From: Curvularia clavata
Lineage: Eukaryota
Reading direction: 5' to 3'
Assembly: GCA_023920165.1 (NCBI GenBank)
Contig: CP089275.1
Location: forward strand, 1,116,001 to 1,180,000
Length of the DNA stretch: 64,000 nucleotides
The notes below the pieces were generated by a model. The model saw nothing but the letters and a program-made list of their open reading frames with translations. It did not search any database and was not told where the DNA came from. The first letter of the stretch is position 1. Every line of letters begins with the position of its first letter. Made by a program: the position numbers and the translations under genes. Below, piece after piece: positions 11,783 to 43,684 of this stretch.

Positions 11783-11855
11783 CTCTCCAACAGGAAATTC
11801 AACCCCGGTCTCCCGTGTGCTGTCAATTGCTTGACAAGCGGAAATGCTGACCACT
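11783..11855 (-). pseudogene. 5'-truncated, degenerate tRNA-Asp(GTC) copy
   Basis: Reverse complement AGTGGTCAGCATTTCCGCTTGTCA-[14-nt intron]-CACGGGAGACCGGGGTTGAATTTCCTGTTGGAGAG, then T-runs. First 13 nt missing; T-loop TTC changed to TTG. Confidence 0.85.
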
Positions 11856-14584
11856 TTAATACTATGGTTATTACTATATTATCGATCATTGTATTTATTG
11901 AATTTTCTATTTTAGATTACTAATATCTGTTAATTTCTCTACATTTAGTAGAGTAGTATTTAACTTAGTCGGTATATTAGTAGATAAGGTGCCTGATAAC
12001 TCAGCTAATACCAGTGTAACTATTCAAAAATTCTAAAATCATTTAATAGTTGAATAGTAAAATTCTAAATTACTATGTAACATAATCATGTTTATCAAAA
12101 CCAGCTAAAGGATAAACTAAAATATATAGTAGCTAAAATGCTATGCTTGAAAGAATAAGGTATATACTGTCTATCCTTCCAAGTACGATACCTCTTCCAA
12201 TACATGCGTCGGGGTTTGAGTCCCAATTCGCACGCTGGCCTTGGCTTTCTTCAGAATCAGCGTAGCATTGTTGTTTCTGTGGAGCACTGTTTACTGCATG
12301 GTCTCAGCTCTAGTCACTGCGCACCTCACTCCTTGTGATGAACACGTGCTACAATTCGTCTCAATAGGACCTGTTATGTAGAAATAGGATATTCTTTCTT
12401 GTAGAAAGGACACGTCATTTGCGTGAGGTGCTAGTTTTGGCGCTTAGGGGCTTGAAATAAATCCTGGCTATGCCAATCGCATGTGGAGTATGTTTGGGCT
12501 GCAGTGCAGTATAAGAGGTGGAGGATAGGAAGCAGCTTGCTGGCGGCTTAGCGTAGTGATGGAGAGATCAACTAAACCGTTGCTATTCTTTCATGCTGCT
12601 AACAATAGCAGCTTGCTCAACCAAGAAAAAATGGCCCTAATATTGGTTGTCTTATCGAAGCGACTGAAGAAATTTGTTATGGATTTTTGGACGCGACGTT
12701 TGGGACCGTTGCCCGTTGCGCACGCACGCGCGCCGATAAGAGAGCCACAACGGCTAATATTGTCCTTGACAGCCGTCATCGAGCCCGCAGGCCAGGTATT
12801 TGGTAGGGTACTGGCTGCAATGCGGCTGCTGTCCAACAGTCATGGTCACACGGAACCCACGAGGATCTTCATGCGACGTGAAACATTGCGATGAAGGAAA
12901 ATTTTGCGTACGAAACAAAACAACCTGTTTGTGTTTTATTCGAGATGCATGTTTATAAGCCAAACACGACATGTTGGGCGTCGGACAGAATACCAAAGCA
13001 AAAAGCAGACGGTAAAAGTTAAAAATAAAAAGGCAAAAAATCGGGCTACATGCGCGTCTTGTGATTACACTGTTGCGAACAGCGTCATAACTGGGTTGCT
13101 CGCAAGTCGGGAATACGGCTGAATAACTTGGTCGAATCGTGGGTAGCCATGAGATGCGGATGGGGTGGGGGGTACAAAGCAGGGGCGTTTGGTGTACCCA
13201 TGTCCGCTTACCTGCAGTTCAAGTGGCACAAAAACAAGCCGTCTTGACCATGCAGCCCTGAGCGTAGCACCGCCGCAATGACGACGCTTTTGCTCCCACA
13301 TTCAAAGCCTGGTCAAGCTGCAATTGTGCAGATTGGGCAAACTACATGCTCACCGTTAGACTCAACGCCCAGGTAGTTAAGCAAAGTGTGCGCTGGCTGT
13401 TGATCCTCCTACCATAGCGCGTGGGGGGACCATAGGCACGTCTACTGAGGAAATTCTCCTGTCCAATGGGACCCGGCTAGCCGTCAGATGGACTCTGCTT
13501 TAATTCAGCGTTGTGATAAAAACAAAGGTGATGTGCCGAAGGCCCTCTCATGCCGCATAATGTCGGCGTCTACAGGCTGATGTGGCACCAATCCCTATGC
13601 CGCTCAACGCTGGATCAGGAACGGCAACAAGCGCAGGAATGGTGAAAACAAAGACGCTAGCGTTTTTGAAGCATTTTTAGCACGACGTGTTGGTTAAAGG
13701 GGTTTCGTCGGGAATGCTCAAACGTGGTTTTTCCCGTTCCAAGGCGCCCAGAGCAGGGCGGGACAGTTTATCTTAGGCTGAGTTTGTGGGAATGATGCCT
13801 CGCTGGTACCGTCACCGATAGGCCTACAACATGGATATTGTAGGTATTAGTATAAAAGGTGACTGGAGATGAGAAAACAAAAGGCGGCGGCGTCAGGGCA
13901 AAGCATACCAGAGCGCCACGCTAGCAAGCCAGTTCCCGCAACCATCTACGTGAGGGGTGGCACTTGTTCTCCCCCGGCAGGTCGGCACCCAAATCAACGT
14001 TGAAACAACAAAACATGTCGCAATGTGCCATTTTTTCAGACATTTTATGATTCTCAGGCCTGAAAGAATTCCCACTTTTGGATGCAGCCGGTAGGCGATC
14101 TCGGTGGCTCGATGCCGGAGTTGCCCTTGTACGAGTTTTGACACATTTCGGCAAAGCTCATGCATGCATGGAAACTATGGCGCTAGCAGTAGTATATGTG
14201 CTCTTATTGGTCAAAGCTCACCATATGGTTTGTTTGTTTTTTGTTTTTGTGTGACATTTCCAGCAGAACTGTTCAAGACTGCGAAATCGACTTTTGCCAA
14301 GATTGCACATGGTTCTCGTCAAGAGCTCGTAGTTTCGACATTGGTCATAGAATCATGGCTCCCCTTTTTTCCACACATTGTCGAACTTGTCATGTTGTTG
14401 CCTTTGGGCGACACAAAAGTTGCTCTATCCTTTGCTTTTCATGTTAAATATCCAGCCTCTTCCTCGAGTAACACGATTCTATATCATCCTCTCATCGTGT
14501 TGTTGCAAATACAACTGCATCGTCATTATTCTTGTGAAACCTGTCTTGGCAATCGTAGCTGCACCTCTCGACCGCGTGAACAAC

Positions 14585-15330
14585 ATGTTGGATGCATACC
14601 AGCAGCACGATGCCGAATCAATTCAAGAAGCCATCGAGTCTACTTTGCATCAAGTGTACAGTGGTTACGAAATCGAGGTGCAAGACCAGGCTATAAGCAC
14701 CATGTTGGAAGTGTCTGGCGGGGATGTTGATCTCCTTATTGCATGGATACGAAGCTTCACGGCTGCCCAGGATGCAGGACACAATCGTTGTCTCCATGCC
14801 ATATCCAGCATCCCAGAAGGGGACAGATTGAGAAGGATCAGGGCTGTGGGTAAGTGAGGACAGCTTTGACGGCGCACGCGCTACCCAAAGCTAATGTCAG
14901 TCAAGTAGCAGCGAACGTCCCAGCGTTGCCGGCAACAGTCGCGCGCGGGGTCGCCACGCGCGAGAAGCCCAGGCGCGGACCTCGCAGTGGCGAGTCTTGC
15001 TCCCCCCCAGCCAACAAGCGCGCACGCACGACTCGAGAAATCTATGGCTGTCCGGGTGAAGGAGGCAAATGTCCAAAACACAAATACGCGATGTGGAGAT
15101 CAAGAGCCAGCTTTCTCAAGCATTTTGTCCAAGACCACGTGCAAGAATACAAAGTAGGCCGATCCCTTCAGTGTCTCCAATGCAAAGGAACCGAATCAGC
15201 CCATTACAAGTATCCGGAACAAGGACAATCGCTTGCAATCCATATCTGGGAGAAACATTTGTCGGTTCAAACCGAATCTGAGGCGGAAATGACTGCGCTG
15301 GCATCGGAAGACGGAGACGAGACGACGTAG
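14585..15330 (+). CDS. Uncharacterised 228-aa protein: helical domain, basic NLS-like patch, double C2H2-like zinc finger (paralogue 1)
   Basis: Phase-1 intron 14850-14908 (GTAAGT..CTAAT..TAG) joins two ORFs in frame. Fingers YGCPG..C..W.S..SF..HF...H and C..C...LAIHIWEKH. Confidence 0.75.
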
Positions 15331-17841
15331 TCTCCAGGCACGCGAAGGGACCCATGGCGAATGGAACGGAGCGCATGCAGTGGCCGTTGTTAGCGAGACA
15401 TTGCCAGTCTTATCGAATTCTTGCTTATCGCATTGTTGAATCCGTAGCAGAGGGCGTCTTTCAAGTGAGGCAGGCTGTGATGTTGTGAAACTGGGATTAA
15501 TAGATGGCAGTGTAGTGTTTTGTATCAAGAGACTGGAACCCACTCATGACCTTTGACACTACAGTAAACCACAGCTATGTGCATAACCATGATCTTGCAG
15601 CATGCGGGCTTACCAGACGGGCCTGAAGATGAATGCATCTGGTCTGCAAGCAACAGTGCATGTAGCTGCATGCAAGCGGTTATGTATCAAGGGTCTGCAG
15701 CCATGCGCCGCCAACCAAGTCAACCCGGCACACTAGCCGAAGTGATGAGTATAGCGTTTGTTCGGATGCAGCGCCAAACTCGAGGCGTTGTATACGAGGC
15801 CTTGACAATGACACGGTTGCGGACATGTTTGTCGGACGATGGTGTTGTCGAGTCGTCGCTGCGGTTCTTGTCGTGGTGTTGTGGAGTACCGGCATGGCAC
15901 GTCCGCTCCTTGGTAGCTTTGCCTAAAATAGCTTAGCCCACGGGAGCGAGTGAACCTTCAACCAAGAATTGGCGGTTCGGGCTCACTTATCTTGTGCTCT
16001 TTACATGGTGCATTGTTGCAGTTCTCATCATTCTCATCAAGACAGCTTTGGCCAAACTGCTCTGGACACTTGAGGCATGTTCCATCGCATGCGTAGGGTC
16101 GGCGAGGCCGCTGGGACCATGTGCATCAATTGCATTTGGCTGTCGAAGCTTTGGCTCCCTGCTCCGCTCATGACGGGAGCCTGCCCATGCGCCTTCTAGA
16201 AGCCACGTACGTTGGGAGTTTGTTTTGCCATGTTCCGCTTTACCACCGCAGGTCCATCCGAGCATCCTCGTCGCCCACGCCACATGACGGACAGGAAAGA
16301 GCTACTGGCAATTGCGTAGACTGCAAACAACCGCTTGGGTGCCCGGGCTGAAGGTAGAGTGCAAGGCGAGATATCTTTTATTGGAACACTGGCTGGAGCA
16401 AAGCAAAAAGAGAGACGGGCGCCTGGGTGAGGCGAGCGAGTCGGAGTTTCCTAGTAGGCCAGTTGGAGTGGTGTGGAGGCGCATCTCTCTGCACCAAGCA
16501 ACAACAGCAACATCGCACAGCTAGCTGCAGCCATAACCGACGCCACGACAAAAGCTACAATTACCTTCGCAATCTACGTTGCTATCGACCTTTGCCCCAA
16601 AAGTGCGCGTGACAATGGATCGCGTCGGCAATCCGGTTTCCAAGCAAAAGTTGCAACACGGAAACGCTCAGCCCAAGCCCCAGCCCCCCGATAATAATGT
16701 TTGTAAACATATTTCCAGTGGGCCATGTACGTTCCGGTGCTAAGCCACACAAGGTGCAGCCGACCCCCACCCAGTGTAGCTTTGTTTCGCCCATATCAGA
16801 CAGGAAACATTGCCGAGTGGAGTAGAATTCATCTTCAGCAGAGAATACGAGAGACCAAAGAGAGAGGGAAAGAGAATGTCTGTGTGTGTTGCTTGAACGT
16901 CAACGCTGCTGATGCACACGACTGTCAATGTGACAATGGCCGCTTCGGCCAGACTTGGCAACATGTCAAGCACTCGATGCAATTGTGACAAGTTTGCAAT
17001 ATTCGCTCTCAACCACACACCTATCGCTCGCTCGCACGCACAGTCCAGTTGTTACAATGTTCAAACTCTGTGGGGTTGTTAAACGCGTCAGTGGATATAT
17101 TGGGCGGCTGGGGGCAAGGGGGGGAAGCCGCCGACTGTTTGAAACACGCTGCCCGTCTGGTCTGCACGTAGGGCTGGCTGCCTCTACCTCACACAGTTTT
17201 CACTCCATCGGCGAGCCCATCCACTCGACCTGTTACCTGTCAAATGACTCACCCAATCCCACCCACACCGTTCCTCGTCCCAATCCACCGTCGCAACTCG
17301 AGGGCGTCGCCTGCACCCTTGGCAATATCGTCCTGCCTGCAGCTTTCCAATCGTCAAGACCATGCCCAAACTCGGCCCACCCAGTTAACCCAAAGACGCC
17401 CTTGCGGGGCTCCACTCTGATCACAGTCATGGTAACAGTCCGTCACCGCCTTGCAGAAGGCAACCTCTGTGCTGTGTCGATGATTTGTTGTAACTAGTGC
17501 TGATCCTTTGTGCAGTTCGCCCGCCATGGGCATGCCTCTTATACACTCCTTCTACTGGTTCTTGGTTTCATGCTTGTCATCCCCATTTTCTGCTCGCTAT
17601 CTTTAACATCCACACCCCCACACGCTTCTTTTAGCACTCAGTCACTCTCTTTTATACCCCTTCCATCGCACGCTCGTCATCTCGATCCTTCACTCGCTCT
17701 CGTCAACAGTTACACCCGCTTTCGGTCTCGTTGGTATGTTTCGCACCAGCGTCACGGTCGTTCCCGTCCTTTGCTTGCAAGACCTACCACCCTATTTCCA
17801 GCAATATCGTCTTAATTACCATCCGGAAACCTTGCGCAGCC

Positions 17842-19202
17842 ATGAATCGTGCAAACCCATTTCCAACCAACGAACCTGCTACCGTCTATCCACAGACCGC
17901 CACAATGCTAGATTCCGAATTCACTCCTCCTGATCCGCTGCCTGCGGGGAATCCAGGCACTGCCGAGCAGAACGCGAGTGTACGCAGAATGCTGTCAGAC
18001 AACATGAGTCGAGAGTTGATTCACTCAATCATCCAGACACACAAGAAATCCGAGGAAGCTGGTAACCATCATATATACGATAATCTCTCAAAGTTAGCAA
18101 AGGAACAGTTGGACCAGGTCATCTCCGCCAATGTTCCACAGACCGCCCCAATGCTGGCCTGCGGGCCCATTCCTCATGATCCACAGCTAGGGGAGAATCC
18201 AGGCACTGCCGAGCAGAACGCGAATGTGTGCAGCATGCTGCTAGCTAACATGAGTCGAGAGTTGATTCATTCAATCATCCAGACACACAAGAAATCCGAG
18301 GAAGTTGGCGACCATGACGAACTCGATCATTTATCAAAGTTAACAAAGGAGCAGTTGGACCAAGTCATCTCCGCCAATGGTGAGTGAGCAAGCATGACTA
18401 CACCATCTTCACAAGCTGACCCAAGGTAGAACTTCCTCCATCACAACCGCTCGTGGAAGCGCACCTGGATCCCAAGCGGAAGATGTCCCAAGGCCCTGAC
18501 GAGGAGCCGGCTCCTTGCCCCCAAGACGCCAAACGCCCGCGCAAGGCACCAACTGGCAAAGGGCCGGTTCAAGAAAAGCTAGCCAAGGACACGTCGCGTG
18601 TGAAGCGATATGGATGTCCGGGAAATACCAAAACATGTCAAGCGTACATGAACAGACAATGGACGTCACAGCTCAGTTTCGTGCATCACTTTGAGGACAA
18701 TCATTCGGAAGAATTCAAAAGCGTCGACCACCTTAGTAACGGTACCAATTTTTTCATATGCTGCGACTGTGAGAGCAACCAGTCCCTGCCCACTGGCACT
18801 GAAGTGTGGAAATGGAGGCACTTACGACAGCTTGCAAAACACATATACAACAACCATTTGAGTCCGACCAAATCGACACACCATCATACCAACGCAATGG
18901 AAGCAAATGGCCAACCTGAACAGCCCGCCGACACTCCTCATACCAATCCCAGTAGCACCGAGCTTAAGCATCAGCTCCAGATCACTGCGAATCCAGGCAT
19001 GGATGGCGTAAAGCCTGGAGAGCCTTCGGGTACTCGATACGAGCATACCAGCCATGCTGAAACCGACAATTTCTCACATTCCGACACTGGTACCGGCCCC
19101 TTCATCCAGGACTTTCTCTACTCGAATGACTATCTTGGTGGCCCGGCATCTGGGTTTAACCTTGCTAATGGTCCCGTTACTGATCTATGGCATCGTCTTT
19201 AG
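17842..19202 (+). CDS. Uncharacterised 436-aa protein: duplicated helical domain, basic patch, double C2H2-like zinc finger (paralogue 2)
   Basis: Phase-1 intron 18380-18429 (GTGAGT..GCTGAC..TAG) joins two ORFs in frame. Fingers YGCPG..C..W.S..SF.HHF...H and C.DC...LAKHIYNNH. Confidence 0.8.
17890..18379 (+). repeat. Intragenic tandem duplication, 246-bp (82-aa) unit, two copies
   Basis: CCACAGACCGCC recurs at 17890 and 18136; NPGTAEQNA...NMSRELIHSIIQTHKKSEE...KEQLDQVISAN occurs twice. Confidence 0.95.
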
Positions 19203-20352
19203 TGCTCCGTCTCTTTTACCCTACTACCATAATCGTTATGTTCTCCCTCTTGTATGATGTTACGTCAATTGCTAGCGCCTTCTATCTAGACTTAGGCTTT
19301 ATGCCTCATGTATGATGATTTTGGGGGATATATTCTGTCTTTCTCCTTTTGTTCTTCTCTAAGCGTATTAGCCAGCCCTTACAGAGCTAGAGGCCTTTTT
19401 ATGATCGTCATACTAGTAGTCAGCGTCACCAACATCCATTCACTCAAGCAAGCAGAACCTTGTTCACGTGTTTTGCTCGTGTCAAAACAAGTTCAAATGC
19501 CGTTACCCATCACAACCGTAAAGGGACTGACAGCAAAGTGTGGGCCGTAGTAGCGACTACATGGAACACTCGTTACCATGTTGCACACCCCTGTCCGTGC
19601 CTCTAACGATCATCCATGCCCACCCACCCCCAGATTCCAGAAACCACACATGTCACCAAGAGAGAACTATCCATCCACCTCACAGCGACCCCAACCGTCC
19701 CCTCTCTTCTCTTCTCGCCGCGCGACACGCTTTCCATACACGGCTCACAGTTTTCATTACCTCCGAAAACCGTTGTCAAGATTAACGATCAGACCAGCGA
19801 CGGGTCGAGCGGGCCTAGTACAACCGTTTTTGGTAGGCTTACTTGCGTGTGGGCGGGACGTTGGGGTCCCGGCTGACGCTAATCCATTACCCTTTTTCAA
19901 GTACTGAACCATGCGCGACATGGTCATTGGCTACTGCGGAAGCCTCAAATGTCGCTCTAGTATGCAAGGGGTATCCACTGATTAGCTAAGAATGCGTTCG
20001 CTTGTTGGACCCGGTAATAATTGACGATCCACAGGCAGATCCCAGTACCATTATTTTCTCCAGTCAGATCATCTCCCGGCTATTGGTCGATAGGTGGTCG
20101 ATTGTATCCACACTACTGCAATTTTTGTTACGATAGCCGAACGGTTCACATGTCCGATGTACTGAAACCGTTGAGTGTCGGTGCTGCTAGACACACTGAG
20201 CTCAACGGGACGTGTTCTCTACTTCTACTTTGAACATTGCTACGTGCTCATTGGTTATTCAGCCTTGATTTCTACATTTTCATCCTTGTTCGTCGATACT
20301 TATGTCACGTTGTCTTACCGATACTTTCTCTAATCGTGGCGACGCTACTTCC

Positions 20353-21160
20353 ATGGCTCCCATGTGCGACGACGCGTTCTCAAAACTCTACATAGCCCTA
20401 GCATATCTGAACGCATTGAGCTGCACCTCAACGCCTCTCGCAACCACTTTGATGAATTTGGCTCTCACGTCCACATGGATTTGAGGCTCCTCTTTCTCGT
20501 CTTACTCGGCAGTTTGCAGGGGGGGAGAGAACATCAATTCAAGACCAACCCATACTGGCCATGCTGAAACGCGGCACAGACCCGGAGAACATCCCTTTGT
20601 ACGTGCGCCATCATAACATAGCGGGAGAGACAGACGATAATCAATATCTTGATGTCATAGCGGAAAGGGCAGCAACGGAGCTCCAAGTGAACACCGCCGT
20701 TGCCGGTAAGCGAAACTGGCTGATGAATTTGATAAAAGTGTCAAACCATACAGAAGAAAAAGCAAAATGGGCACAGAAATCCTGTGCCGGCTTGATGACT
20801 TCTCCAGATCAAGACCAAAGTGCGCGCATGACTCCCACGAGCACGCGATGCAAAACCAGCGCAATACGGTTGCCCAGGTGATCAATGCCGGTGCATCCGA
20901 GGATATGAATAGAGCCCTGGAGGTCATTTAAAGCCCTTCTTCGAGCATCCAACGAGCCAAGCATCTAGCAGAGTACCATAGTCATGGTTAGTCTCAAGTA
21001 TCTGCAATGCGCAATGCGAAACCAATTCCTCGGGTTTCCATTCATCCTACACCCATCACAAGGGAGAGAGCCGCTATCGCCCGTCTTGAGATTATTGTGC
21101 TAGTGGAAGCGCCCGCGACGGCCTTGCAACAAACATTTGCTAGCAGGCGCACAACTCAAT
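20353..21160 (+). pseudogene. Frameshifted third paralogue of the zinc-finger family
   Basis: IQDQPILAMLKRGTDPENI...AVA followed by a phase-1 GTAAGC donor at 20706. YGCPGDQCRC at 20865, then WRSFK, YLQCAM and GLATNIC in shifting frames with stops. Start position uncertain. Confidence 0.7.
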
Positions 21161-21991
21161 TTAGACTGACACAGGATGCTTAGCTTGGTGGTGATGACAG
21201 GTATAAGCGTCGACGCCAAAGCGGCCATGCCAATCTCTGATGTAGTCTTCAGTCCGCCTCGTGCTCCGCCTCTTTTACTATGACTGCTGCCACGTACTCT
21301 TCAAATAACATTTTGTATTCTATTTTACTATATACAGCTGAAGTAAACTTTTTTACGTTATCATATGATAGTTTTACCAATGCCTTGGCAAAAGTAGGCC
21401 GCTCAGATAAGCCGCTCACCCGTGAGCTATGTTACTTATCTAAACATTTCAATCAAATTTACGATTACTTCAACTACATAGCATCACTAGAGTTTTTTAG
21501 TTACACTTAGCAATCTATTCACGTGCTACTTCACCATAGTACTCTTTCAAGGACCATTTCAATCAATATTTTCTATATCGTCTATTCTGGTCTGCTTTTA
21601 AGGATGAAAGAATCGTCTCCCACTCCACATAGTCTTGAGCGCAAATATCGTAACCCGCCATCTCTCTCCCTCCCCGTCCCATCTCAACTCGCCCATGAAC
21701 CCCCGATTTCCCGCAAGAAATCAGATCCTTATTTAGGCTGTTGCTTTGGCCCTCATCAAGTGCTGGACCAGATATTTGTACGTACAGCTGTACCAAGCAG
21801 CAATACAGCTAGATAGATGCAAACGAACCAGAAGAATGTTTAAATCTGCGTTACAAGTTGATGTGTAATATAAGTCGACTTGACCATATATTTTAAAAAA
21901 GAGAGCTACTCGTTTAGAACATAAGTAAACCCCCAAAAGCGCATTATATCGCATGATTATCATCGAACGCCAAAAAAGCAAAAAGAATGAG

Positions 21992-22062
21992 CTCTCCAGC
22001 GGGGCAACGAACCCCGGTCTCCTGCGATTTGTCACATGACAAGCGGAAATACTGACCACTAT
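21992..22062 (-). pseudogene. 5'-truncated tRNA-Asp(GTC) copy
   Basis: Nearly identical to 43603-43684, including the intron (TGTGACAAAT versus TATGACAAAT). First 11 nt absent; T-loop TTCGTTG; downstream T-runs retained. Confidence 0.9.
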
Positions 22063-22206
22063 GTTACTATGCTGTCTGCCAAGATACCCGTTAAATTGGG
22101 TAGGGTTAGGGTTAGGGTAGGGTTATCTACTTATTATCTATATTTTAATTACTTACTAGATATTTTATATCTATTACTTACTTCTTAATAAGTTATTTTA
22201 GTCATG

Positions 22207-22694
22207 TGTTACAGGTAACAAAGAAGGATTCTCTCCTTGACGGGGATGACGAGGTTAAGGACCAACCACGTCCGCGTCAGAAGACAAAGGGCATCGCGGG
22301 GCTTGGAGTCACGTGATGTGCCATCCCGCCAAGGATGGGATGACAGTGGGCCGAGGGATGGCAGGCCATCCCCAACATCCCGCCAAGAAACAGAAAGACG
22401 GGATGGACGGGATGGCAGGACCAGAAGGCAATGGGTATAAGAATGTGTCGGATTTCATTATTACACTCGTTGTGGTCAACTCGGCAAAGTATCTTTCCAT
22501 AGTTCTTTCATACTCAGATTGATACTAGTTATTCTATCTTACAATAGAATTGGTTTTGTCTATCTTTGGTTACTCCTTACCTCCGAATCGCCAGACAACT
22601 ACCTCACGGTATACTTCGCAGAAACTGGCCTCGCCCTAACCCGGAACCTAGGCTAGGTAAGTATATTCCCACTAACGTAGGACCCCGTGTAACA
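22207..22694. mobile_element. Solo LTR (488 bp)
   Basis: TGTTACA...TGTAACA termini with a perfect 5-bp TSD TCATG; inserted in AT-rich RIP-like DNA. Confidence 0.9.
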
Positions 22695-22899
22695 TCATGT
22701 AGTATAAAAAACTTATATATATTTTTTAAATTACTATAATTTTATTATTTAAAATTTATAATAAATAGAAATAGATTTAATAAGTATATAAATATATATT
22801 TATATGTATTTAAAAATTTCTATAGTTGAGATATAAGATACTTAGAATAGTGTTAGTAGTTTGTTGTAGAGGGATGTTCGATCTATAGGGATTGACGTT

Positions 22900-23969
22900 A
22901 TACTTTTCGCTATTAGTAACTAACTACTCTATAGTTCTTGCGAATCACCTCCACAATAGCTAAGGCTTAACGCCAATTAAGAAAGGGGATTTTTTAGGAT
23001 CTTCTGGCAAGCCTGGAAGCAGACATTTACTGCGAAGCTTATTCTCCACTCATTTGAGGCAGTAGGGATCGCTCCGCTCAACCCCAACGTGATACTCGAC
23101 CGCTTCACCCCCAGCCAAGCGGAGGCAGCTGCAGCACAGGCCTTCAATGAAGCTAACGACTGGCGACACAATGACAGGATTTGGCGGCAATCTGTGCAGG
23201 ACCCGACTACGGACGAGGCAAAGGAGCTGCGGCAAACACTCCACCAGCTTACAACCCAAAATGAGCTGCTGAAGATGAAGAGGGACAACTTGCAAGATAC
23301 TCTAAGTCACGCAAAGAGCAAGTCTACAAAGAGCAAGCCTCTGCCGCTTATTCAGCGCAAAGAGACTCGCTCAAAGACACAATGGTACTCTCCCCGGGGA
23401 GTGAATGAGGCTCAACACCTTCAGGATGTATTTGAGCAGGAGGAGAGGGACATCGAGCTCCGCAAACACACTGAGCGAGAGCTCCATGAGTCTAACAGGA
23501 AGCTGAAGCAAAAGCTTGACGCTGAGAAGAAAGCTGCTGCTGCAACAAGGAGAAAGGAGGCTGCTGAGCGAGCACAGCTGAAGCGTGAGGAAGCAGCTCC
23601 ACGCAAAGCTGAACGAGAGCGTCAAAAGCAAGAGCGCGATGCTGTAGAAGCTATACAACTGACCCAAAGAGGCAAGCTGAAAGCTTCACAGTCTGAAGCA
23701 CCTAGAAAGAAGCAGAGTCGTGGTGCTGCAGCTGCCCGTAGTTGTTGTGTTGCTACGGCGCGTTCCCCAACCCCTCCACCTACATACAACAGCCGTGGCC
23801 GCAAAATCGCCCCACGCAAAAAGTTTGAGCTAGGGAATTAATTAGAATATTTAATAGAGAACTGCTCCGAGTTTTCTTGCGATAATAGCTAATGTGCGTG
23901 GCTCCACAGCTCTATCTGTCTATACTGCGTAAAGTGGTTGGGGTGGGCGGCACGCGCACAGACACTGTA
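22900..23969 (+). mobile_element. 3' half of a pogo/Fot1-type transposon
   Basis: FFRIFWQAWKQTF...ILHSFEAVGIAPLNPNVILDRF, a charged coiled-coil tail ending SRGRKIAPRKKF, and a TIR-like end GGTTGGGGTGGGCGGCACGCGCACAGACACTGTA. Confidence 0.8.
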
Positions 23970-24379
23970 ATCGCGCGGACAGGCATCGCGATTGCGCCGT
24001 TCCACTAGGAAAAGTCGGCTCCAATCTCAGATTTCCTCAGCGTGTACTGACGGCGGAATGATCAGCATAACACCTAATGGCCCTCTCACGACGGTATCTT
24101 TGTACTCGGCCTAATTTAAATTCAATATACTGTTACATGCCTTCGGGCCCCACCTCGTCGGACCGAACAATACTTATGCCTGCAACCACAGTACAGCAGT
24201 GCTTACGAGCTTCCGTCAACCTCCGGTGAGAGATTCATTAACGTCTGAGCCTTAGCCTCCTTACTAGAGATTTATAAAGTCTTCAACTTGTCCTCAAGGT
24301 TAGGAAGTACTATTCAATTTTCACGCTTTACAAGACTTCAGCCACTATTAGGGTAAATTCTGCACCACCAATAATCAAC

Positions 24380-24705
24380 ATGCGTATCTCATTTACTTAT
24401 ATCCTCGCTATTGCACTATCTCTAGTCCACGTTCATGGACAGTGCACACAATCTTCAGGCACCTACGAGGTACGTTTAAGTGTCTTGCTTACTACAAGAA
24501 TTTGTCACACTAATAAAAGGGTTAAGGCATGCAGCTCCGATGGAAACAAAGTCGTACGCAGACAATAACCTAGAATCTCCCCACCTCCTAGAACTAATTT
24601 GAAAAGCTTTGGTGCAGTGGATATCATGGTAGCTTGGTGGCGGATTGCGCTAAGGATTACGGTCTTAAATGCAGTTACCAATTAGGCGGCTATGGATGTT
24701 ACTAA
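24380..24705 (+). CDS. Small secreted cysteine-rich protein (71 aa, 6 Cys), candidate effector
   Basis: Exons 24380-24469, 24527-24553 and 24607-24705 give MRISFTYILAIALSLVHVHG-QCTQSSGTYEACSSDGNKVLWCSGYHGSLVADCAKDYGLKCSYQLGGYGCY. TATA-like TATAAA near 24273. Confidence 0.8.
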
Positions 24706-24722
24706 GATCCACGATGGGTTAA

Positions 24723-25140
24723 TGTCAGGAACAGCCTCCCGCTGTCCCTGTCAGGGGCTGTCAGCCCATATTAGTCAGCCTCACGTATATAAACCCCCAG
24801 ATCGGTAGAGTAGCTCTCTAGCGATCTGTCTCGTATCAATACAGACTATTTGCACACCCACCCTACTACTATTGCCTATTGTGTATCCAAACCGTACAGG
24901 TACTCTAACATTCAGATCGCTATCAACTCCAGCGAGGGGACATTCGAGGTTCCGGGAAAGGCCAAGAGAGTCAAAAGGGGCCCAACCTGGAGCAGACGAC
25001 GTCAGCAAGACGCGTAATGAGGACAAATGTCCTAGAGTGACTTGCTATAAATGCGGCAACCTGGCTACCTTAGCATATATTATACTAGGCTGAAATAAAG
25101 TACCCCTAAGCCTGACGAGGCGAAGGCGGGGAAAGATAGG
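24723..25140 (+). mobile_element. Truncated LTR retrotransposon relic (LTR 24723-24910 plus gag zinc-knuckle remnant)
   Basis: TGTCAG...CTAACA segment followed by VTCYKCGNL, a degenerate CX2CX4HX4C. Confidence 0.55.
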
Positions 25141-25174
25141 TGTCAAAGTATAGGGTAGCTACTTATTCTACTAG

Positions 25175-25428
25175 TGTAAGGGTGTAGTTGGTCGAGGCTA
25201 CGGTTTCTACTCAGTGAGCGGTAGAGTCGGTGTAGGAGTGAGTGGACAGGCAACTGAGGAGAGGAACAGGAGAGGAACAGGAGAGAAAGATTGGGGTTTT
25301 GAGTACTATTGTCTGTGGAGTGTCGGTCCCTCTCTAACTACTGAAAGGGGTGGGCTTATAACTACCAGCCCACGTGACTACAGATTACATAACCAATGTA
25401 GTGTAATGGTGCATTACGCACCGTTACA
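25175..25428. mobile_element. Solo LTR (254 bp)
   Basis: TGTAA...TTACA termini, flanked by CTAG on both sides. Confidence 0.75.
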
Positions 25429-25439
25429 CTAGTTACTTA

Positions 25440-25670
25440 AGTTTTAAGAGCTTTATAAAAAGAACAATATTTACAAGCTTTATACACCACCTTACTTATC
25501 TTATCTACTTCAGCCTCTCGATGTTGGCTACTTCTCGCTATTAAAGCGCGCATGTAGCTATAAGGTAGAGAGTTTAATATACTACCACATTAACTATATA
25601 TGTTAGTAAGCTTAAGTTTCTACCAGCATTCAAAATAGCCTCTAATCAATTAATTATATCAGCTAATATC
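25440..25670 (+). mobile_element. RIP-degraded pogo-type transposase fragment
   Basis: Reads PPYLSYLLQPLDVGYFSLLKRA, a degenerate PPHSSHLLQPLDVGCFSPLKRA. Confidence 0.7.
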
Positions 25671-25733
25671 TGTTGCAGACAAGCTACTCAGCTACTCTAC
25701 GACAGAATCCGGGTGCTTGGACACACACCTGGA

Positions 25734-26985: not shown

Positions 26986-26989
26986 AAAA

Positions 26990-33810: not shown

Positions 33811-34345
33811 TGGAAAAAAACAGCCGTGTAGATTTTCTTCACGTTAGCCACACTAGTAAGCAAATTGCACTAGCACATGTCAATTCACACACGATCTGTG
33901 CCGCGTCGACGAGGTATCCCGAGACCGGTCTTGTTTATCAAGAACCAGGGTAGCACTGTCAAGGCGCGTCAAGCCATGAAACTGAAAAGGAATACGATAC
34001 GGCTGATCGCGGCCACGAGTCGTTGATATGCCTGTGGGCGGTTTCTCACTTTAACATCCTAATCAGGAAGCCCCACTTCTTGCTCCTGCCACCTCCATGG
34101 CGCTAATGCGATACTAGTGCTACGCTAGAGGTCCTGGCAGTAGCTTCCTCGGATGGATGCCGCCAACCTGTGTTCTGCACTTGAACTATGCAATCTTTTC
34201 TGTTTACAACCGATAGCAGAATAGGCCCTGGAATCGTGCGCCGTTTAAGACTGATGGCCCTCGGCCGCTGTTGTGGTGCCGTCACCGCACCTTGTTCAAG
34301 TTTGACCGCCATCTTTGCTGCAGCTGAGCCATTTCCACTCTAGAC

Positions 34346-35882
34346 ATGACTTCTCGCGACGGCTACACATGGACTCCTGCATCCGGGCTCACAGCAGGCC
34401 TGCCAACCCTTGGAGCTATCAACCCAACCACCAATGTCTCAACTTCTGAGGTCGTTTACGATGTTATCGTTGTCGGCGCTGGGTATTGCGGTCTCACAGC
34501 TGCGCGTAATGCCTCGGCTGAGGGCTTGAAGGTGCTCTTGCTCGAGGGTCGCGACCGCATTGGTGGTCGATCATGGTCGTCCAACATCGACGGCTACCCA
34601 TTCGAGATGGGCGGCACGTGGGTGCATTGGGGACAGTCCAACACATGGCGCGAGATGTTGAGATACCAAATGATGAACGATGTTGAGAGGTCCTTTGACT
34701 TCTCGCATGGCGTGAATCACTACGAACTGAACATTGGACAGCAGGGATACACAATGACCCACGACAAGGAGGATGAGCTCCTTATTTCGGCCCTGAATAA
34801 GTTCACAAACATCGACGGAGCTTACGGAAGGAACATTATTCCTCTTCCGTACGACACGTTCCACATCCCGGCTGCAAAGGACCTCGACAAGCTGTCCGCT
34901 CAAGATCGTATCAACAAGATTGAATCAGAGCTCTCCCCACAAGAGCGCGCAGCACTCGAGTCGTTTGTTCTACTCTGCAGTGGTGCCACACTTACTACCA
35001 TGAGCTTCCACGAGTTCATGCACTGGCAAGTCTTTCAGTATAATCAAGTGTTTGCATGCACTGACGACTTCCAGGTGGGCCATGTGTGGCTATACCTACG
35101 CGGGCTGCATAGACATGCTCATCAGCTGGAAGTTCAAGAACGGCCAGTCGAGTTTCGCCATCAGGTTCTTCCAGGAAGCGCTTGCAACAAAACGCCTAGC
35201 ATACGCTTTCAACAGCCCCGTCAAACACGTCAAAGACACAGGCCGCACAGTCGAAGTGACAACACTTGATGGACGCCGCTACTCCGCTGCACGGCTCATC
35301 TCAGCTATGCCACTGAACGTCTTGGGAGAGGTCACATTCGATCCACCACTCAGTGCTGGCAAGAAGGCAGCGATTGCGACAGGTCACGTCAATCAATGTG
35401 TCAAGGTGCATGCCGAAATTTCGAACAAAGACCTTCGGTCGTGGACAGGCGTCACGTACCCACACAACGAACTCATGTACGCGATTGGTGACGGCACGAC
35501 ACCCGCAGGTAATACGCATGTCGTCTGCTTCGGCGGTAGCAATAAGCACATTGATCCCGAAGTCAACATCGATGCCACTAAGCGTGCTGTAACCAACATG
35601 TTCGCGCAACAAAAGACGGAGCCCCACATAAAGAGGCTGGTGTTCCACAACTGGTCAAAGGACGAGTTCGCAAAGGGCGCTTGGTTTTTCCCGCCACCTG
35701 GCCTGATCGCCAATCATCTCGACGATATGAGGCAGAGGCACGGAAATGTGCTGTTTGCAAACTCAGACTGGGCGTTAGGCTGGAGAAGCTTTATAGATGG
35801 AGCGATTGAGGAGGGGACACGAGCAGCTTTCGAGGTCAGGAAGGAGCTGGCCGAGCTCCAGCCTGTAAAGCCTACGTTGTAA
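34346..35882 (+). CDS. maoN: Flavin monoamine oxidase, MAO-N-like (495 aa)
   Basis: MTSRDGYTWTP, DVIVVGAGYCGLTA, EGRDRIGGRSWSSNIDGYPFEMGGTWVHW and WALGWRSFIDGAIEEG. A GC-AG intron at 35026-35074 restores HWWAM. Confidence 0.9.
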
Positions 35883-36425
35883 ACTATGTAGAATCAATAG
35901 CCCGTCCTCGAGACATAAACTCAAAACTGTCGGCATGTGTCCAAACAGTGTCACTTCTCAACCATCGTGTCAGAACGCGGGCTCAATCCGCTCCAATAGA
36001 AGTCGTGGCTGGGATTGAGTTGTGGCATTGATGCCGAAGGCCAGACCGCATTCCATACTATCGGCGCCGAAGGTATTCTTGCCGCGTATGCACTAAGTGC
36101 CTGACAGCATGTGATCAGCCCTAGTAGCACCAGCCCCGCGTTCGAGTAGCGTCCCACAGCCGTGGGCAGTGCGGGCTTGCCCGTTTAGGGCAATAAAGGG
36201 AGAACCCTAATGACGGCCATCTATCTTGTGGCTCGCGGTCCAGATAGATTGATAGGGGTGTCGATAGCAACGATACGCGATAGGCGATGCTTCGTCCCCG
36301 ATACATATCCTATCTCTTGAAAAGAAAAGGACTATGATAAGGCAAGCGCCCAGTCAGTACTTAATCCTTTCGCCACAAGTCTCTTTCATAGCAGAGCAGC
36401 TAACTATCATATTCGCCCCACCGAC

Positions 36426-38316
36426 ATGGACTTCACCGACACGAAGACGCAGTACGACTCAAAGGTTTCCGCGGATCTCGAGAAATGTGAGTGACGGAAA
36501 CGTCTACTGCCGCAAACGCTCAACTGACGGTAGGCGCAGTGCCATCTCAGCATCAAGGACAGATCCAACATGTGCGCCTTGAAGGTCTTGTGCTCCAGAA
36601 CGCGGATGCAAGGAACATGAGCGGCAAAGAGACAATCTCCGCAGGCTGGATCATATGCAACAGCTGGGCGGGCATTGCTGCCACCTTTGCCTTGGCCATT
36701 GCACAAGGCGGCCCAGTGACGTTGATCTATGGCCCCATCATCATGTGTGTTCTGGTTGGTGCGTGCGCTATCTCACTGGCGGAGCTGGCGAGCGTGTACC
36801 CTACTGTAAGTCTGAGTACACCATGGATGACCTGAGTACACTGACATGGTAGGCTGGCGGTCAATATCACTGGGTGTGCATTCTGGCTCCTGAGAGATGG
36901 AGTCGTGGGCTTGTATGTTGACTTGCACAGCATGACCTGAGTGACAAGAACACTGATGAACATTAGAGCTACTGCTGCGGAGCCACGAACGTGTTCTCCT
37001 GGATAGCGATCTGTGCAGGGATTGCCATCATCGTTCCCCAGTTGTGCCTCGGTATGGCGATCTTCTGGAACCCATCGTATGTTCCGCAGGCGTGGCACGC
37101 TTTCCTCGTATACCAAGCCATCAATGTGCTGGTTCTCATGTACAACATCTACCTACTTCGTCGCACTATGTGGATTCATGACCTCGCTTGTAAGTCAAGG
37201 ACCAAAATGTTACGGCTACCGTGGCGCTCTTACTAACGGAATGAATGTATAGTCTTCCTGTCGATCAGTAGTTTCTTTGTAATCGTTATCACTTGCCTCG
37301 CGCGGACTGCACCGCATTTTCAGCCCACCAAGTCTGTGTGGGCGACTTTCCTTAACGAGAGTGGCTGGTCCAACGGCGTCGCCTTTCTCACTGGTCTCGT
37401 TTCGCCAAACTATATGTATGCCGGTATTGATGGTGCGGTACATCTGGCAGAGGAGTGCAAGAACCCAGGAGTGGTCGTGCCTAGAGCGTTAATGAGCACG
37501 GTATCCATCGGCTTCGTCACATCCTTCATCTTCGCCATCATCATGATGTATTGCACCAGCGATCTAGAAGCTGTGGTCACGACGGCGACTGGGTATGTCT
37601 CCCCCTTCGGTGGCTATCCCCTTCCGTGCTGAGATTTCCGCTTAGTGTACCCATTTATGAAATCTGGCGTCAGGCAACTCGGTCAGATGTTGCTGCGACC
37701 GTTTTCCTGTTTCTTCTCCTGCTCGCAGCCTTCTTTGCTCTCAATGCAACCCACCAAACAGCGTCTCGGCTGACTTGGTCTTTTGCACGGGACGACGCTA
37801 TCTTCGGCAGCCGCTGGCTCGGTAAGATCAACGAGAAGCAGCAGATACCCATCGCTGCCTTAATCTTCAACTTCGCAATCATGTTCATCATTGGCTGCAT
37901 CTACTTGGGATCGACATCTGCTTTCAATGCCTTCATTGGCACTGGTTTGATCTTGCAGCACGTGACATACGCGTTCCCGGCAGTGTTGCTCATGATGCGC
38001 AAGCGCTCACCAAAGTGGCTGCCGAGTACACGCTCTTTCAAGGTGCCAGCGGTCTTGGGCTGGGCGGCGAACTTGATTACAGTGGGCTTCGCAATCCTGG
38101 TCTTGGTCTTCTACGACTTCCCAACAGTCATACCTGTAACGGGTACGAGCATGAGTAAGTGGCCCCCCAATACTGATCTGGTGTTGTTGTGACTGACTCC
38201 TCCCAGATTACGCGTCGGCAGTCATCGGCGTGATGGCTATCTTCACAGTCGCAAATTGGTTCGGACATGCGCGCAAGCACTTCCATGGCCCGCGCTTGCA
38301 AGTCCTGATGGAGTAG
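36426..38316 (+). CDS. Amino acid/choline/GABA (ACT family) permease, multi-exon
   Basis: ICNSWAG, GGPVTLIYG, SLAELASVYPT-AGGQYHW, GIDGAVHLAEEC, TASRLTWSFARD, YLGSTSAFNAF and C-terminal HFHGP. Confidence 0.9.
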
Positions 38317-38831
38317 ATAGACTTTTTCGTCTATGTAGTGTATGTGAGCGTTCAGTTTGATCGACTCTGGCTGTGACGTCACCACATTTTGTGTTTTTCC
38401 GTCCATGTGAATCGCTCCGTGATACATGCTTGAACCAGAGAGTTTGTCGCTGTAATTGAGATTGTCAGCATGCCGTCTTGTGTTGCATATCTACGCTATG
38501 TTGCGAGAACTTCGTCCGTTAACTTGCTAGGAAAGGACGAGACGCCAAGCAATCGTTCTTTCCGAATTCGGCCCGAACGCAAGCAGCACACCAACCGCGT
38601 TGCTTCCACTCCGCGATAGAGCACAATCGTACAGTACGCATTGCAATACTCCTCTGCAGATCTTGTCGCAACTTCATGGATACCAAGATCGAGATTCTAC
38701 TTGACTATTGTAACAGTTGAGGTAGCCCGGGCCTGCGTCGTTGTGAACGCCAGTTGCATGCAACTTGGTCCCCTTGATCGTGGTCCTCCAAGTTTCACCA
38801 GGCTCGTCAGATTCGGAGCAGGAGCATCAGC

Positions 38832-40383
38832 ATGCCTCCAGATGGTAATGTGAAGAAAGAGCGGGGCTGCTTCCAATGCTCGTGCCGCAGGATCGTCTGT
38901 GACAAGACCGAACCATCATGTCGCAAATGCGCGAAGAAGGGCATCGAATGCTCTGGGATGGGCAGGATTCGATTCGCTGAAGGAGTAGCCAGAAGAGGAC
39001 GTCTCAAGGATTGCAAAATCCCGAAGACTGGAGGCGATGATAGCTGCAAGGAGTTACCGAACACTATCGAGTTTCAATCATTGCGCTGGCCGGGGGAGGA
39101 ACGCGCTAGGAAGAAGAGGAAGAGTGATCTGAACGAGACTGCGCAAGGACCACCGACACCTCACACAATCAATTCAACAGGCATGCATGATGGTAGGAAA
39201 GCATTCCTGTTGTCGGCCCCTATAAACACGAATGCAGATTCCGAGGCTGATGTGGAAGACATCGGTCGAGGCTACAATTCGATTGTGGTTCGTTACTCCC
39301 AATCATACGAAATTGTGCCCTGGGTTGCGCCAATTGACCCAAAGTTGCGGATGCTCTTCTCATACTGTAAGTTGCAATCTAGAGTCGGCCATAGTTTGAC
39401 CATTTACTCACGATCTTACAGTCTCTCATGTCGTTGCCCCAGCTATGGTGGTGTTCGACGACGACAAAAATGGTTACAGATCATTAGTCCTACCAATGGC
39501 GCTCGAAGACGATCTGCTGCGCCAGGCAGTGGGTGTTGTGGCTGCACAACATCTTAGTCATCAGCGGCCCGAACTTCAAGGAGCAGCTGAGGCTGGACGC
39601 GCTGCTGTCATTTCACGCTTACGCAACGATTCCTTGCAGCAGTCTGCCGACAAGGTGTTTAACAAGTTCACCTGGGCAACTTTGGTTGTGCTTCTTGTGG
39701 GCGAGACAGTGACTGGAAGTGCTGACTATCGCTTCTTCGTTCAGATGTTGCTCAGCTTGTCCATGAGTAACCCAGGCAGAGATGCTGATCCCATCATCTC
39801 AAATTTCTTACAAGCACAAACCCATATGTAGGTAATGTTGGAGGGTACTTGCACAGCGATACTAACGAGCATCAGGTTCGAGCTGCTCGGCGTGCCACTG
39901 CTCGGCGAAGAGGTCGGCGTGCTCACCATGATGAAAGCCTCAGAGTCTCTGATGAGCTTCTTGTCCTATTCTCATCTCCCCGAAGACAGCGAAGACCGGC
40001 GCATTGCAGACCTGATACTACAGTGCTTCGTCTCCGCATGCAATATATATACCAGATGTGCAGCCGATGCCCATGCAGTCTCAAGATTTCACGACACTAT
40101 CCAGGAAGAGTCTATCCACCAACTTATTGGCATCATATCGCAAGTCTCATCAAATGATCGTGGCGCACATGCACTGGTCTGGGTGTGCTTTGTTGCTGGA
40201 GCAGCTTCGACAGATCAGAGCCAAAGAGACTTCTTCGTACATCGCATGGAACAGGTGTATGCACGTACGCGATTTCGCAATATTCCTACAGCGATACAGA
40301 GCTTGAAAAACATATGGGCTCGGAGACCTGGCGAACGGTGGACCGTATGTCTGCCCCAATTGTCAAACGTGCTTGTTATGTAA
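38832..40383 (+). CDS. Zn2Cys6 transcription factor with a Fungal_trans_2-like domain, 3 exons
   Basis: GCFQCSCRRIVCDKTEPSCRKCAKKGIEC; NGYRSLVLPMA; LVWVCFVAGA. Introns near 39367-39420 and 39828-39876. Confidence 0.88.
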
Positions 40384-40563: not shown

Positions 40564-40690
40564 TGTTACAAGTAACAAGAAGGATTCTCTCCTTAACGAG
40601 GGATGTGAAGGCTAAGAGCCTATGGACGTCCACATTAGAAGGTGTAAGCCTAGAAGTACCATGTATAGTTACGTGGTTGGCCACTGACTA
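40564..40690. mobile_element. 5' fragment of an LTR of the 22207/25734 family
   Basis: TGTTACAAGTAACAAGAAGGATTCTCTCCTT matches the start of 22207-22694. Confidence 0.75.
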
Positions 40691-41652: not shown

Positions 41653-43300
41653 ATGTTCACTTTTAACTACAATGTTACTTGGCCATACCCCTTTCGATTC
41701 TTCACCGCCATAATCATCGTTTTGCTTTTGCTTGCAACAATATTTCTATCATTTGTTAACACCATTGTCACAGGCTACGATCTGTGGATAACATATTCCA
41801 CTAATCCAAACGCGACCATAGCAAAGAAGATGTGTTACGACAAACCAGTTTTTAAGGGCATACACAAATTGTCGCCCAGCTGCGAGCCCAAGGAAATCGG
41901 GGTACAACCAAAGTTCAATACTAGAAAGAACGGCTTCATATACTCCATAGATAACATCACGACTACGGATTAGGATGGCCTCCTCGTCCCTTCGCCATCT
42001 ATGAGCTATTTGAACAATACTCTCGAAAATTGTACGATCAATTACATCAAGATCAATTACATCAAGATCAAAATGGCCAAGGAGATGGGACGAACCGCAC
42101 AGCAAGTAGCTTGGTCCCGATGGGGACCGCCACTACTGGCAGCAATATCCTGCTTCATCACGAACGAGCAGGGACATACGCAATTCAATTTCACTACTGA
42201 TTACGATCTCATTCTTCCAAACGCGAACAAGCGGTATGAACTAACGGGTGGAGGCCATGACCAATGGGGATTTGCCGCACAACAAAAGCTGGATCAATTC
42301 GTTATTAGCAACAACACCAAAGACCCCGCCATGTGGTGGGCCGAGTCACTGACGTCCTACGGATGGCTCGATGCGTCCTCTAAGATAGAAGCAGCGAAAA
42401 GCGCGATAAAAGAAGACGGTAGATGGCAAAGCGGAAGCATAGGTCTGTACCCTTTGCTGCCCCGACGAAATCTCTTTGCCAGTCTAACCCATACACCTCA
42501 GACTTCCGCCCCAATCCAGACAAATCCTCGATTCTCTCTCCCGATTTCTTCAACATCACATGCTACACCCTGCAAGCTAACGGTGTCATATTCTGGAGCG
42601 GCACAGAAGTCCGCTTGGACCACTCTCCCTCCTATCCTCTTTACGCAATGCTCAATGCATGTGACTTGCTCACGAAATCGTTCTACAGCGCCGTAGCCAC
42701 CGATATAGGTCGCACCCATGGTCCCAATATTCTTACTGATAGATCCGTGCTGCAGACAGTAACAAGCAATTATAGAGAGATTGCGAAAACGTTTCGGCGC
42801 GTAGCCGCGGGCCCAGCCACAGATAGCTGCGATGCGCTCAAGTCGACAATCGGACAGCCGGAGGTTACGCCCTCGACGATTTTCACATTATATCTTTGTC
42901 AGATGCTAGAGAAAAAGTTGGTTTCGGCGTTGGCTGTGTCGGTGCTGCTTGCCAATTTAGTGTTGCTTAGAGCGCAGTGTAGTATAGTGACGATGGCCGC
43001 TACGTATGTGGTGAATCTAAGGGATCCGAAAGGTGAGTTTGTTGGAAGCTGCTCAGGTCATCTGTTGAAACTAACTCTTGCTTCACAGCTAATCATTGTA
43101 TCGGGTGTGGTGAGTATGATACCACCAGCTTGCTAGGGAGAAGTAGTGTCACAGCCAAGACGGCAGTAGCGTCGCATCAATTGCTAGATGATCAAGATCA
43201 TGAACGGTAGCCAGGGAAATGCGGCATGCTTTGACTACGATACAGGAACAGGCGTGAGAAACCTATGGGCGACCCGCAATCAGATGGTCGAGTATCAATC
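41653..43300 (+). pseudogene. Pseudogene of an uncharacterised fungal membrane protein (N- and C-terminal TM segments)
   Basis: FNYNVTWPYPFRFF plus a TM helix; in-frame TAG at 41971; 15-nt duplication ATCAATTACATCAAG; frameshift near 42450-42490; YLCQ plus a hydrophobic C-terminal helix. Confidence 0.7.
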
Positions 43301-43602
43301 GCTAGTAGCGAATTGCGTGAAGAAGGTGCCTATCTACTTGAAAAGAAGTCCTGGTGTGCTGACAGCCCAGTAATATGGTACTATACTGCAGTATTTACAG
43401 TACTGCCCAAGAATGCTAATGAACGAATGTAGCAGTCGAGCAGAATAAAGCATAGCTAGTGTAGATAGGCCCCACAAAAAAGCTAGCGCAGCACTGCGTC
43501 TGAGATTTTCGTTAGTACTAGTCCAACCGGGCCCGACCAGCCCCTCAGCTCCACCAACCCACTACGACGAAAAAACTTCACCAAAAATCATAAAAAAGAG
43601 AA

Positions 43603-43684
43603 CTCTCCAGCGGGGAATTGAACCCCGGTCTCCCGCGATTTGTCATATGACAAGCGGAAATACTGACCACTATACTACTGAAGA
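43603..43684 (-). tRNA. tRNA-Asp(GTC) with a 10-nt intron, apparently intact
   Basis: TCTTCAG TA GTATAGTGGTCAGTAT T TCCGC TTGTCA[TATGACAAAT]C GCGGG AGAC CGGGG TTCAATT CCCCG CTGGAGA G. All stems pair and a T6 terminator follows. Confidence 0.93.

Follow-up and report, generated by a model that had tools for sequence, protein, structure and literature searches.

How can an intact tRNA gene of a fungus come to stand on one strand with several incomplete copies of itself, with thousands of nucleotides of other genes lying between them? The question is raised by a stretch of 64,000 nucleotides of Curvularia clavata (contig CP089275.1, positions 1,116,001 to 1,180,000; hereafter, the window). Its content is that of a filamentous ascomycete, with a NACHT-ankyrin NOD-like receptor (NLR) gene, Zn2Cys6 regulators, a DUF6601 gene and DNA that resembles the products of repeat-induced point mutation (RIP). 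The window holds one intact tRNA-Asp(GTC) gene (A), two copies without the 5′ end (B and C) and one short 5′ piece (D), and two blocks of DNA are delimited by A, B and C. Our best reading of this arrangement, which we hold tentatively, is that DNA was repeatedly inserted by break and repair into the 5′ end of a fragile gene transcribed by RNA polymerase III (Pol III).

One intact and three partial copies of a tRNA-Asp gene

A carries a short intron after nucleotide (nt) 37 and a T-run terminator just 3′ of the gene, and is the sole RNA gene of the window at the Rfam gathering threshold. ARAGORN, run in bacterial mode, found no tRNA in the window, missing A because of its intron. For a more sensitive search, public metagenome contigs were scanned with a 24-nt pattern from exon 1, which returned 66 loci, all of them intron-bearing fungal tRNA-Asp genes. 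Usable flanks were available for 59 of the 66, and these yielded 45 distinct sequences, from unrelated fungal genes, that make up our tRNA-Asp profile. With nhmmer, exactly four matches of the window to this profile are significant, namely A, B, C and D (Table 1). All four lie on the minus strand, and nt 6-17 of the tRNA are common to them all.

In a BLASTN comparison of A and its flanks with the window, the match to B is 86% over 101 nt, that to C 76% over 105 nt. The profile alignments of both B and C begin at node 18, which corresponds to nt 6 of the tRNA, and in both copies this nucleotide is directly preceded by CAT. Counted from nt 6 onwards and with the intron, B and C span 93% of the gene. 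Rfam reports A and neither of them, even at E<=10. Both copies are without nt 1-5, so that the 5′ strand of the acceptor stem is lacking, and both are dead.

A preliminary description of this DNA had recognized three minus-strand tRNA-Asp sequences, and Rfam, BLASTN and nhmmer recover them as the intact A and the partial B and C; D had been overlooked. It was right that both dead copies retain their 3′ ends and T-runs, as can be read in the sequence, but it placed the breaks at nt 11 and 13, where B and C merely have two substitutions each (within nt 10-13) and their homology continues, ungapped, back to nt 6. The motif TACTATG that it noted beside both breaks is indeed common to them, although it proves to be CAT together with nt 6-9 of the tRNA itself.

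The introns of A and B are of the same short type, one base apart, while that of C is four bases longer. A's intron was found in none of the 66 metagenome loci, and the first 12 nt of C's intron are identical to those of two of them (L012 and L061). Relative to the profile consensus, the exons of B have six substitutions and those of C eight (four of them C-to-T), and no derived substitution is common to B and C. Judged by these sequences, B is the copy closest to the live gene, and C either is older or comes from an older form of it. The differing intron types and the lack of common derived substitutions argue that neither B nor C was copied from the other. As they nevertheless start identically, their separate histories point to two events at the same nucleotide, with C first. 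By our own arithmetic, random truncation would give the same start in about 1 of 70 cases and the same preceding trinucleotide in 1 of 64, or about 2e-4 jointly.

These relations bear on the possibility that B and C are duplicates of one pseudogene that was truncated beforehand, arising for instance as the terminal repeats when a segment was duplicated or inserted again. Gene conversion from A would afterwards have replaced the interior of B. The CAT/nt 6 boundary that both share speaks for such an origin, as does the likeness of their trailers, whose alignment score was reached by five of 300 shuffles. Nevertheless, neither the difference in intron type nor the absence of a common change among the six of B and the eight of C would be expected of duplicates, no paralogy was found between the block that separates B from C and the DNA beyond C, and gene conversion is an extra assumption. 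We consider this the least probable of the explanations weighed here. Retroposition of a pre-tRNA was also considered, and it was rejected because the copies share one locus and one strand.

D consists of a few leader bases and an exact copy of nt 1-17 and was detected by both BLASTN and nhmmer. It lies 1.8 kb upstream of A, between a glutathione S-transferase (GST) gene and the NLR gene. The chance expectation of the 18-nt 5′ pattern, with up to three mismatches, is 0.03. Directly after its nt 17 there is an imperfect inverted copy of D, the kind of scar that snap-back synthesis at a break may leave.

The presence of D suggests another explanation, in which one large insertion, of 23.4 or 33.6 kb, would have divided a tRNA-Asp gene into D on one side and either B or C on the other. 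The 12 nt from nt 6 to nt 17 would then stand as a direct repeat at both flanks of the insertion, and A would be a separate gene, either carried inside the insertion or resident. D overlaps B and C by exactly nt 6-17 and on the same strand, although its pairing with one or the other is putative. A repeat of 12 nt would fall within the 6-16 bp described for the Starship elements that target 5S rDNA (PMC11162782), and for an element that carries cargo the insertion would be toward the small side. By contrast, there are two 3′ halves and one 5′ half, no captain gene (the Starship recombinase gene) was found at either end by the Pfam scans described below, D is followed by its own inverted copy and not by an element terminus, and the close match of B to A, intron included, is left unexplained. 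A single split gene thus seems quite improbable to us.

Table 1. Features of the tRNA-Asp locus, in coordinates of the window.
Feature	Position	Strand	Evidence or remarks
A, intact tRNA-Asp(GTC)	43603-43684	-	Rfam RF00005, 49.2 bits (gathering score 29), model positions 1-71; nhmmer E 8.7e-32
B, dead copy, nt 6 to 3′ end and T-run	21976-22068	-	nhmmer E 3.3e-22, start at profile node 18
C, dead copy, nt 6 to 3′ end and T-run	11770-11863	-	nhmmer E 7.3e-22, start at profile node 18
D, leader and tRNA nt 1-17	45464-45485	-	exact 17-mer; profile E 0.0034
Imperfect inverted copy of D, directly after its nt 17	45444-45463	-	palindrome read in the sequence
Spacer between D and A, 1.78 kb	43685-45463		holds the GST gene
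GST gene	44113-45062	+	Pfam GST_N_2, GST_C_7
Block 1, 21.5 kb, between A and B	22069-43602		Pfam
Block 2, 10.1 kb, between B and C	11864-21975		Pfam
AT-rich RIP-like relic, directly upstream of C (~310 bp)	11864-12170		GC 0.24
AT-rich RIP-like relic upstream of B	22700-22950, continuing at 22126-22202 across the LTR		GC 0.20 and 0.16
Telomere-like repeat, ~four CCCTAA units, ~30 nt upstream of B	22100-22125	-	2 matches against 0.12 expected
Solo LTR, 488 bp, TGTTAC...GTAACA	22207-22694	-	sequence read; 5-bp target duplication CATGA
LTR, long terminal repeat; GC, G+C fraction.

The junctions and how they may have arisen

Both breaks adjoin AT-rich DNA, which the preliminary description had correctly seen as RIP-like. 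The dinucleotide bias is present at both junctions, and the label follows the customary index thresholds. In the relic upstream of C, TpA/ApT is 1.27 and (CpA+TpG)/(ApC+GpT) is 0.75; in the two parts of the relic upstream of B, the first index is 1.30 and 1.58 and the second 0.39 and 0.0. Between the AT-rich DNA upstream of B and that upstream of C, no significant similarity was found.

Upstream of B come about 30 nt, the telomere-like run, the RIP-like DNA split by the solo LTR, and an open reading frame (ORF) in which a short segment matches the C-terminal part of the window's pogo/Fot1-like transposase. The telomere-like repeat is oriented as a chromosome end that caps the side toward lower coordinates, and it may be the trace of a break that healed or of a chromosome end that once lay here. 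The solo LTR, which sits inside the AT-rich relic at 140 nt from B, belongs to a multi-copy family: in a public run designated X2 (see below), its depth is about 100 times that of single-copy DNA, and loose contig ends fall at 22202 and 22694.

Diverged pieces of the solo LTR recur at 11629-11683, 25940-26092 and 40564-40641, and a second multi-copy repeat, with about 50 times single-copy depth in X2, lies at 25676-27009. The transposase belongs to a decayed Tc5/pogo (Fot1-like) transposon at 7262-9413, the only transposase in the ORFs scanned with Pfam, which keeps remnants of HTH_Tnp_Tc5 and DDE_1 and 59-bp inverted ends that are 96.6% identical. It sits within an F-box/ankyrin gene (6865-10629), outside both blocks.

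Break and repair is the explanation we favour, and it agrees with the scars found at the junctions, namely the RIP-like relics, the solo LTR, the telomere-like repeat and the snap-back copy of D. Under this model, foreign or translocated DNA would have been inserted repeatedly within the first 18 nt of a tRNA-Asp gene, and each insertion would have duplicated part of the gene, in such a way that one complete copy survived. The first event would have left C, which keeps the older, longer intron; a later one would have left B, with the intron form of the present gene; and a third, on the upstream side, would have displaced the 5′ piece D. The blocks, rather than the gene copies, would then be what moved. 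The likeliest course is that a fragile Pol III gene under heavy transcription broke and was repaired, with the insertion of transposable elements (TEs) and RIP afterwards; a recombinase encoded by an element was probably not involved.

Other organisms, gene blocks and the weighing of explanations

Some indication of the age of these events is given by public sequencing runs. Among the 24 runs listed as sharing words with 17001-27000, two contain most of that stretch, and the contigs of four runs (X2, X3, X7 and X9) were aligned to 9001-29000 at 80% likeness. A contig of X2, possibly the source sample, is identical to the window over 18275-22249 and bridges both B and the telomere-like repeat. 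X3 is a different organism, and its contigs, which are about 91-92% identical to the window, extend over 11840-16061 and 19213-22003, each ending within a tRNA fragment. As block 2 is present in X3 with the edges of both fragments, it predates, to judge from these alignments, the split between the window organism and X3, and the events are old.

Two further runs were set aside. X7 and X9 match the DNA that neighbours block 2 at about 98%. X9 gives no cover of 11669-21673, which was not used as evidence of presence or absence, as missing cover is uninformative; the same applies to X7, whose matches over block 2 are low-depth scraps in four bins, with one 712-nt piece at about 81% identity. Were the gap real, which we mention as a lead only, it would place the left edge outside C, at 11668 or lower.

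The metagenome loci provide a broader comparison. In all 65 that could be evaluated the 5′ end is complete, and a second partial copy is absent from the flanks retrieved for the 66 (1.5 kb, if the contig is long enough). An architecture like that of the window is therefore not commonplace. None of the 66 loci shares its flanks with the window, and no synteny can be drawn from them.

Several observations weigh against break and repair. First, it gives no obvious reason why two cuts should fall at nt 5/6 after the same CAT; a sequence-specific enzyme would be expected to leave such a regular pattern, and nt 6-17 are common to all copies as if they were a recombination core. Second, a likeness among the flanks of the copies is not borne out statistically. 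Upstream, the similarity of 45-nt flanks is not significant in permutation tests (p 0.07 for A-B, 0.31 for A-C and 0.14 for B-C). On the 3′ side, the observed score was reached by 73 of 300 shuffles for A-C and by one for A-B, besides the five for B-C given above, and what A matches in the latter case is not B's own trailer but DNA offset by some 87 nt downstream of B. What weak likeness there is among leaders and trailers can be explained, judging by the 66 loci, by generic motifs seen across them (the leader ATCAA and the terminator). Third, the telomere-like repeat and the palindrome at D could be later than the events themselves. Finally, no contig with an empty site, or joining across a block, was seen among those listed for the four runs over 9001-29000; the insertion is thus deduced from the architecture, no relative with an uninterrupted site having been seen.

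Two candidate flank relations were examined and abandoned. A second A-like trailer at 21877-21909, the stretch about 87 nt downstream of B, has an E of 3e-4 in a small search and of 29 window-wide, and it was dropped. An A-like 5′ flank kept in B by way of a 10-nt deletion is not claimed, its nhmmer posterior being about 0.55 and its permutation p 0.07.

Independent decay is another explanation. Several full tRNA-Asp paralogues would have stood at the locus, and TEs, RIP and deletion would have removed two 5′ ends and one 3′ part, the common break point being a coincidence or a local weak spot. RIP-like relics do lie at both 5′ breaks, a solo LTR and a pogo-like relic lie beside B, the intron types of B and C differ as those of separate paralogues would, and what little similarity the flanks have can be put down to the generic leader and terminator motifs, with no need of duplication. 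However, decay would have had to produce the same start after the same trinucleotide twice, for which we calculated the small joint probability given above. Additionally, it would be unusual for one strand to hold three or four tRNA-Asp genes within 34 kb; a second copy is absent from all 66 metagenome loci within 1.5 kb, as far as their contigs extend. We therefore regard independent decay as decidedly unlikely.

The contents of the blocks and the search for a recombinase bear on the remaining explanation. Pfam scans covered 277 ORFs of the window, which comprise all 232 with 70-129 amino acids and, of the 51 with 130 or more, 45 (the other six being antisense or overlapping frames). Block 1 encodes a short-chain dehydrogenase, ankyrin fragments, an amine oxidase, an amino-acid permease, a Zn2Cys6 regulator and unknown ORFs, while the ORFs of block 2 have no Pfam family. 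Two ORFs of block 2, at 14854-15330 (+) and 18420-19202 (+), are paralogous, with 29% identity over 161 amino acids and a common Cys/His-rich motif. For two unknown ORFs, the Protein Atlas returned either no lead or leads below its threshold (zinc-finger-like, DUF7896).

In none of the 277 ORFs did the scans detect a domain of an integrase, of DUF3435, of another recombinase or of a reverse transcriptase, nor was there any match to a Starship captain (PF11917-type), and this bears out the earlier remark that no recombinase or captain is recognizable here. The RIP-like relics, at most 400 bp, are too short to conceal a captain gene.

Some features of the gene blocks and their surroundings deserve mention in their own right. 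In block 1, the amine oxidase, permease and Zn2Cys6 regulator genes stand side by side at 34328-40383 (+) and may form a small catabolic gene cluster. Block 2 contains a 246-bp tandem duplication at 17889-18379. Beyond D, the NACHT/NPHP3_N-ankyrin NLR gene occupies 46439-50368 (-), and its ankyrin region (46503-47756) is built of near-identical tandem units of about 102 bp, with 80-87% identity, as in hypervariable fungal NLRs.

The remaining explanation is site-specific integration, which the preliminary description had put forward. According to it, two or three elements with tRNA-like attachment sites would have integrated at one tRNA-Asp gene, B and C being the displaced 3′ parts (attR-like), by means of an enzyme since lost, either of the Starship type or another tyrosine recombinase. 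It predicts the order of similarity that is observed, in which C, with its host-type intron, is oldest and B resembles the present gene. The identical starts of B and C at nt 6 after CAT agree with it, and the presence of nt 6-17 in all copies, with D ending at nt 17, fits a common core of 12 nt. Starships that target 5S rDNA, which is also a Pol III gene, have direct repeats of 6-16 bp (PMC11162782). Against it, no recombinase domain was found and the relics could not hide one, the supposed element ends upstream of B and C are unlike beyond CAT (the B-C comparison given above), and the blocks measure 10 and 21.5 kb. An empty site was not seen among the contigs listed, and the metagenome loci contain neither such a junction (65 evaluable) nor a second partial copy (66). 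Moreover, known Starships disrupt their 5S target and do not restore it (PMC11162782), and D is not predicted by a model that restores the 3′ part.

We regard site-specific integration as unlikely but keep it in consideration, because nt 5/6 was reused exactly and a 12-nt core is shared. Of the preliminary description, the idea of successive insertions at one tRNA-Asp locus has held up in that the architecture fits it, by the same nt 6 start after CAT and the intron types of C and B. The att-type or Starship-like recombinase that was to carry them out has not, given the lack of a recombinase domain and of any empty site seen, the presence in X3 of block 2 with both of its fragment edges, junctions that look like scars of TEs and break repair, and the unpredicted D. 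More specifically, a fungal site-specific system that preserves its target gene, with nt 6-17 of tRNA-Asp as core and three events that each rebuilt a working tRNA, appears decidedly doubtful; its recombinase would possibly be encoded elsewhere and act in trans.

Relation to known systems

Retrotransposons such as Ty1 and Ty3, or TRE of Dictyostelium, insert upstream of tRNA genes and leave the gene whole. The present locus resembles their targets in having TE remains, including a solo LTR, just upstream of tRNA-derived sequence. It differs from them in that the breaks lie within the mature tRNA, and in that the LTR stands off from B, in older RIP-like DNA. Targeting of Pol III genes by these retrotransposons has been described elsewhere (PMC5911963, PMC5006619).

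The genomic islands that occupy tRNA and tmRNA genes of prokaryotes, as defined for Islander (PMC4383910), resemble this locus in architecture only. In both, an intact gene stands at one end and a displaced fragment, on the same strand, at the other, and a tandem arrangement has one intact gene and then two fragments, the older one being more diverged. By contrast, our locus is nuclear and eukaryotic, no integrase was found in it and no empty site is documented. Its fragments comprise 93% of the gene instead of a short 3′ part, there is an extra 5′ fragment (D), and scars of TEs, of RIP and of a telomere-like kind abound at the junctions.

Starships of Pezizomycotina that target 5S rDNA share with this locus a fungal host, a Pol III target and kilobase-scale blocks of metabolic and regulatory genes, and the 12-nt stretch common to the 5′ and 3′ pieces is within the range of their direct repeats (PMC11162782). 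The locus is unlike them in that no DUF3435 captain is present here, and the Starship insertions reported disrupt a 5S copy without rebuilding it (PMC11162782). Although Starship insertion sites were annotated with tRNAscan, no tRNA target is named in the part of that study at hand (PMC11162782), within a literature search that was not exhaustive.

The likeness to yeasts is of another kind. At their sites of gene gain and at their breakpoints, TE remnants are found at tRNA genes and new genes accumulate beside them (PMC2675101; reviewed in PMC7990762), and fork stalling, ectopic recombination and capture of DNA at breaks have been proposed as explanations. For instance, Gordon, Byrne and Wolfe (2009) put forward fork stalling and DNA capture at breaks as possible mechanisms (PMC2675101). 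In the window, too, TE remnants lie beside tRNA sequence, and the genes of the blocks would be candidates for lineage-specific ones. The yeast work is statistical and at the level of gene order, and nested partial tRNA duplicates with a common boundary, such as those found here, are not part of it (PMC2675101). The organisms also differ, being Saccharomycetes in the yeast studies (PMC2675101) and a RIP-active filamentous fungus here.

In yeasts, tRNA genes are known as statistical sites of gene gain and breakage whose molecular scars are rarely visible, and in this window the scars can be read, as nested partial copies that share a boundary to the nucleotide and stand in a datable order. If that boundary was set by an enzyme, the locus would represent the first tRNA-restoring integration system in a eukaryote, a counterpart of the bacterial tRNA-gene islands, and the targets of fungal cargo elements would extend beyond 5S rDNA. 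If, on the other hand, it was set by breakage, the fragile point would be pinned to the first 18 nt of a Pol III gene.

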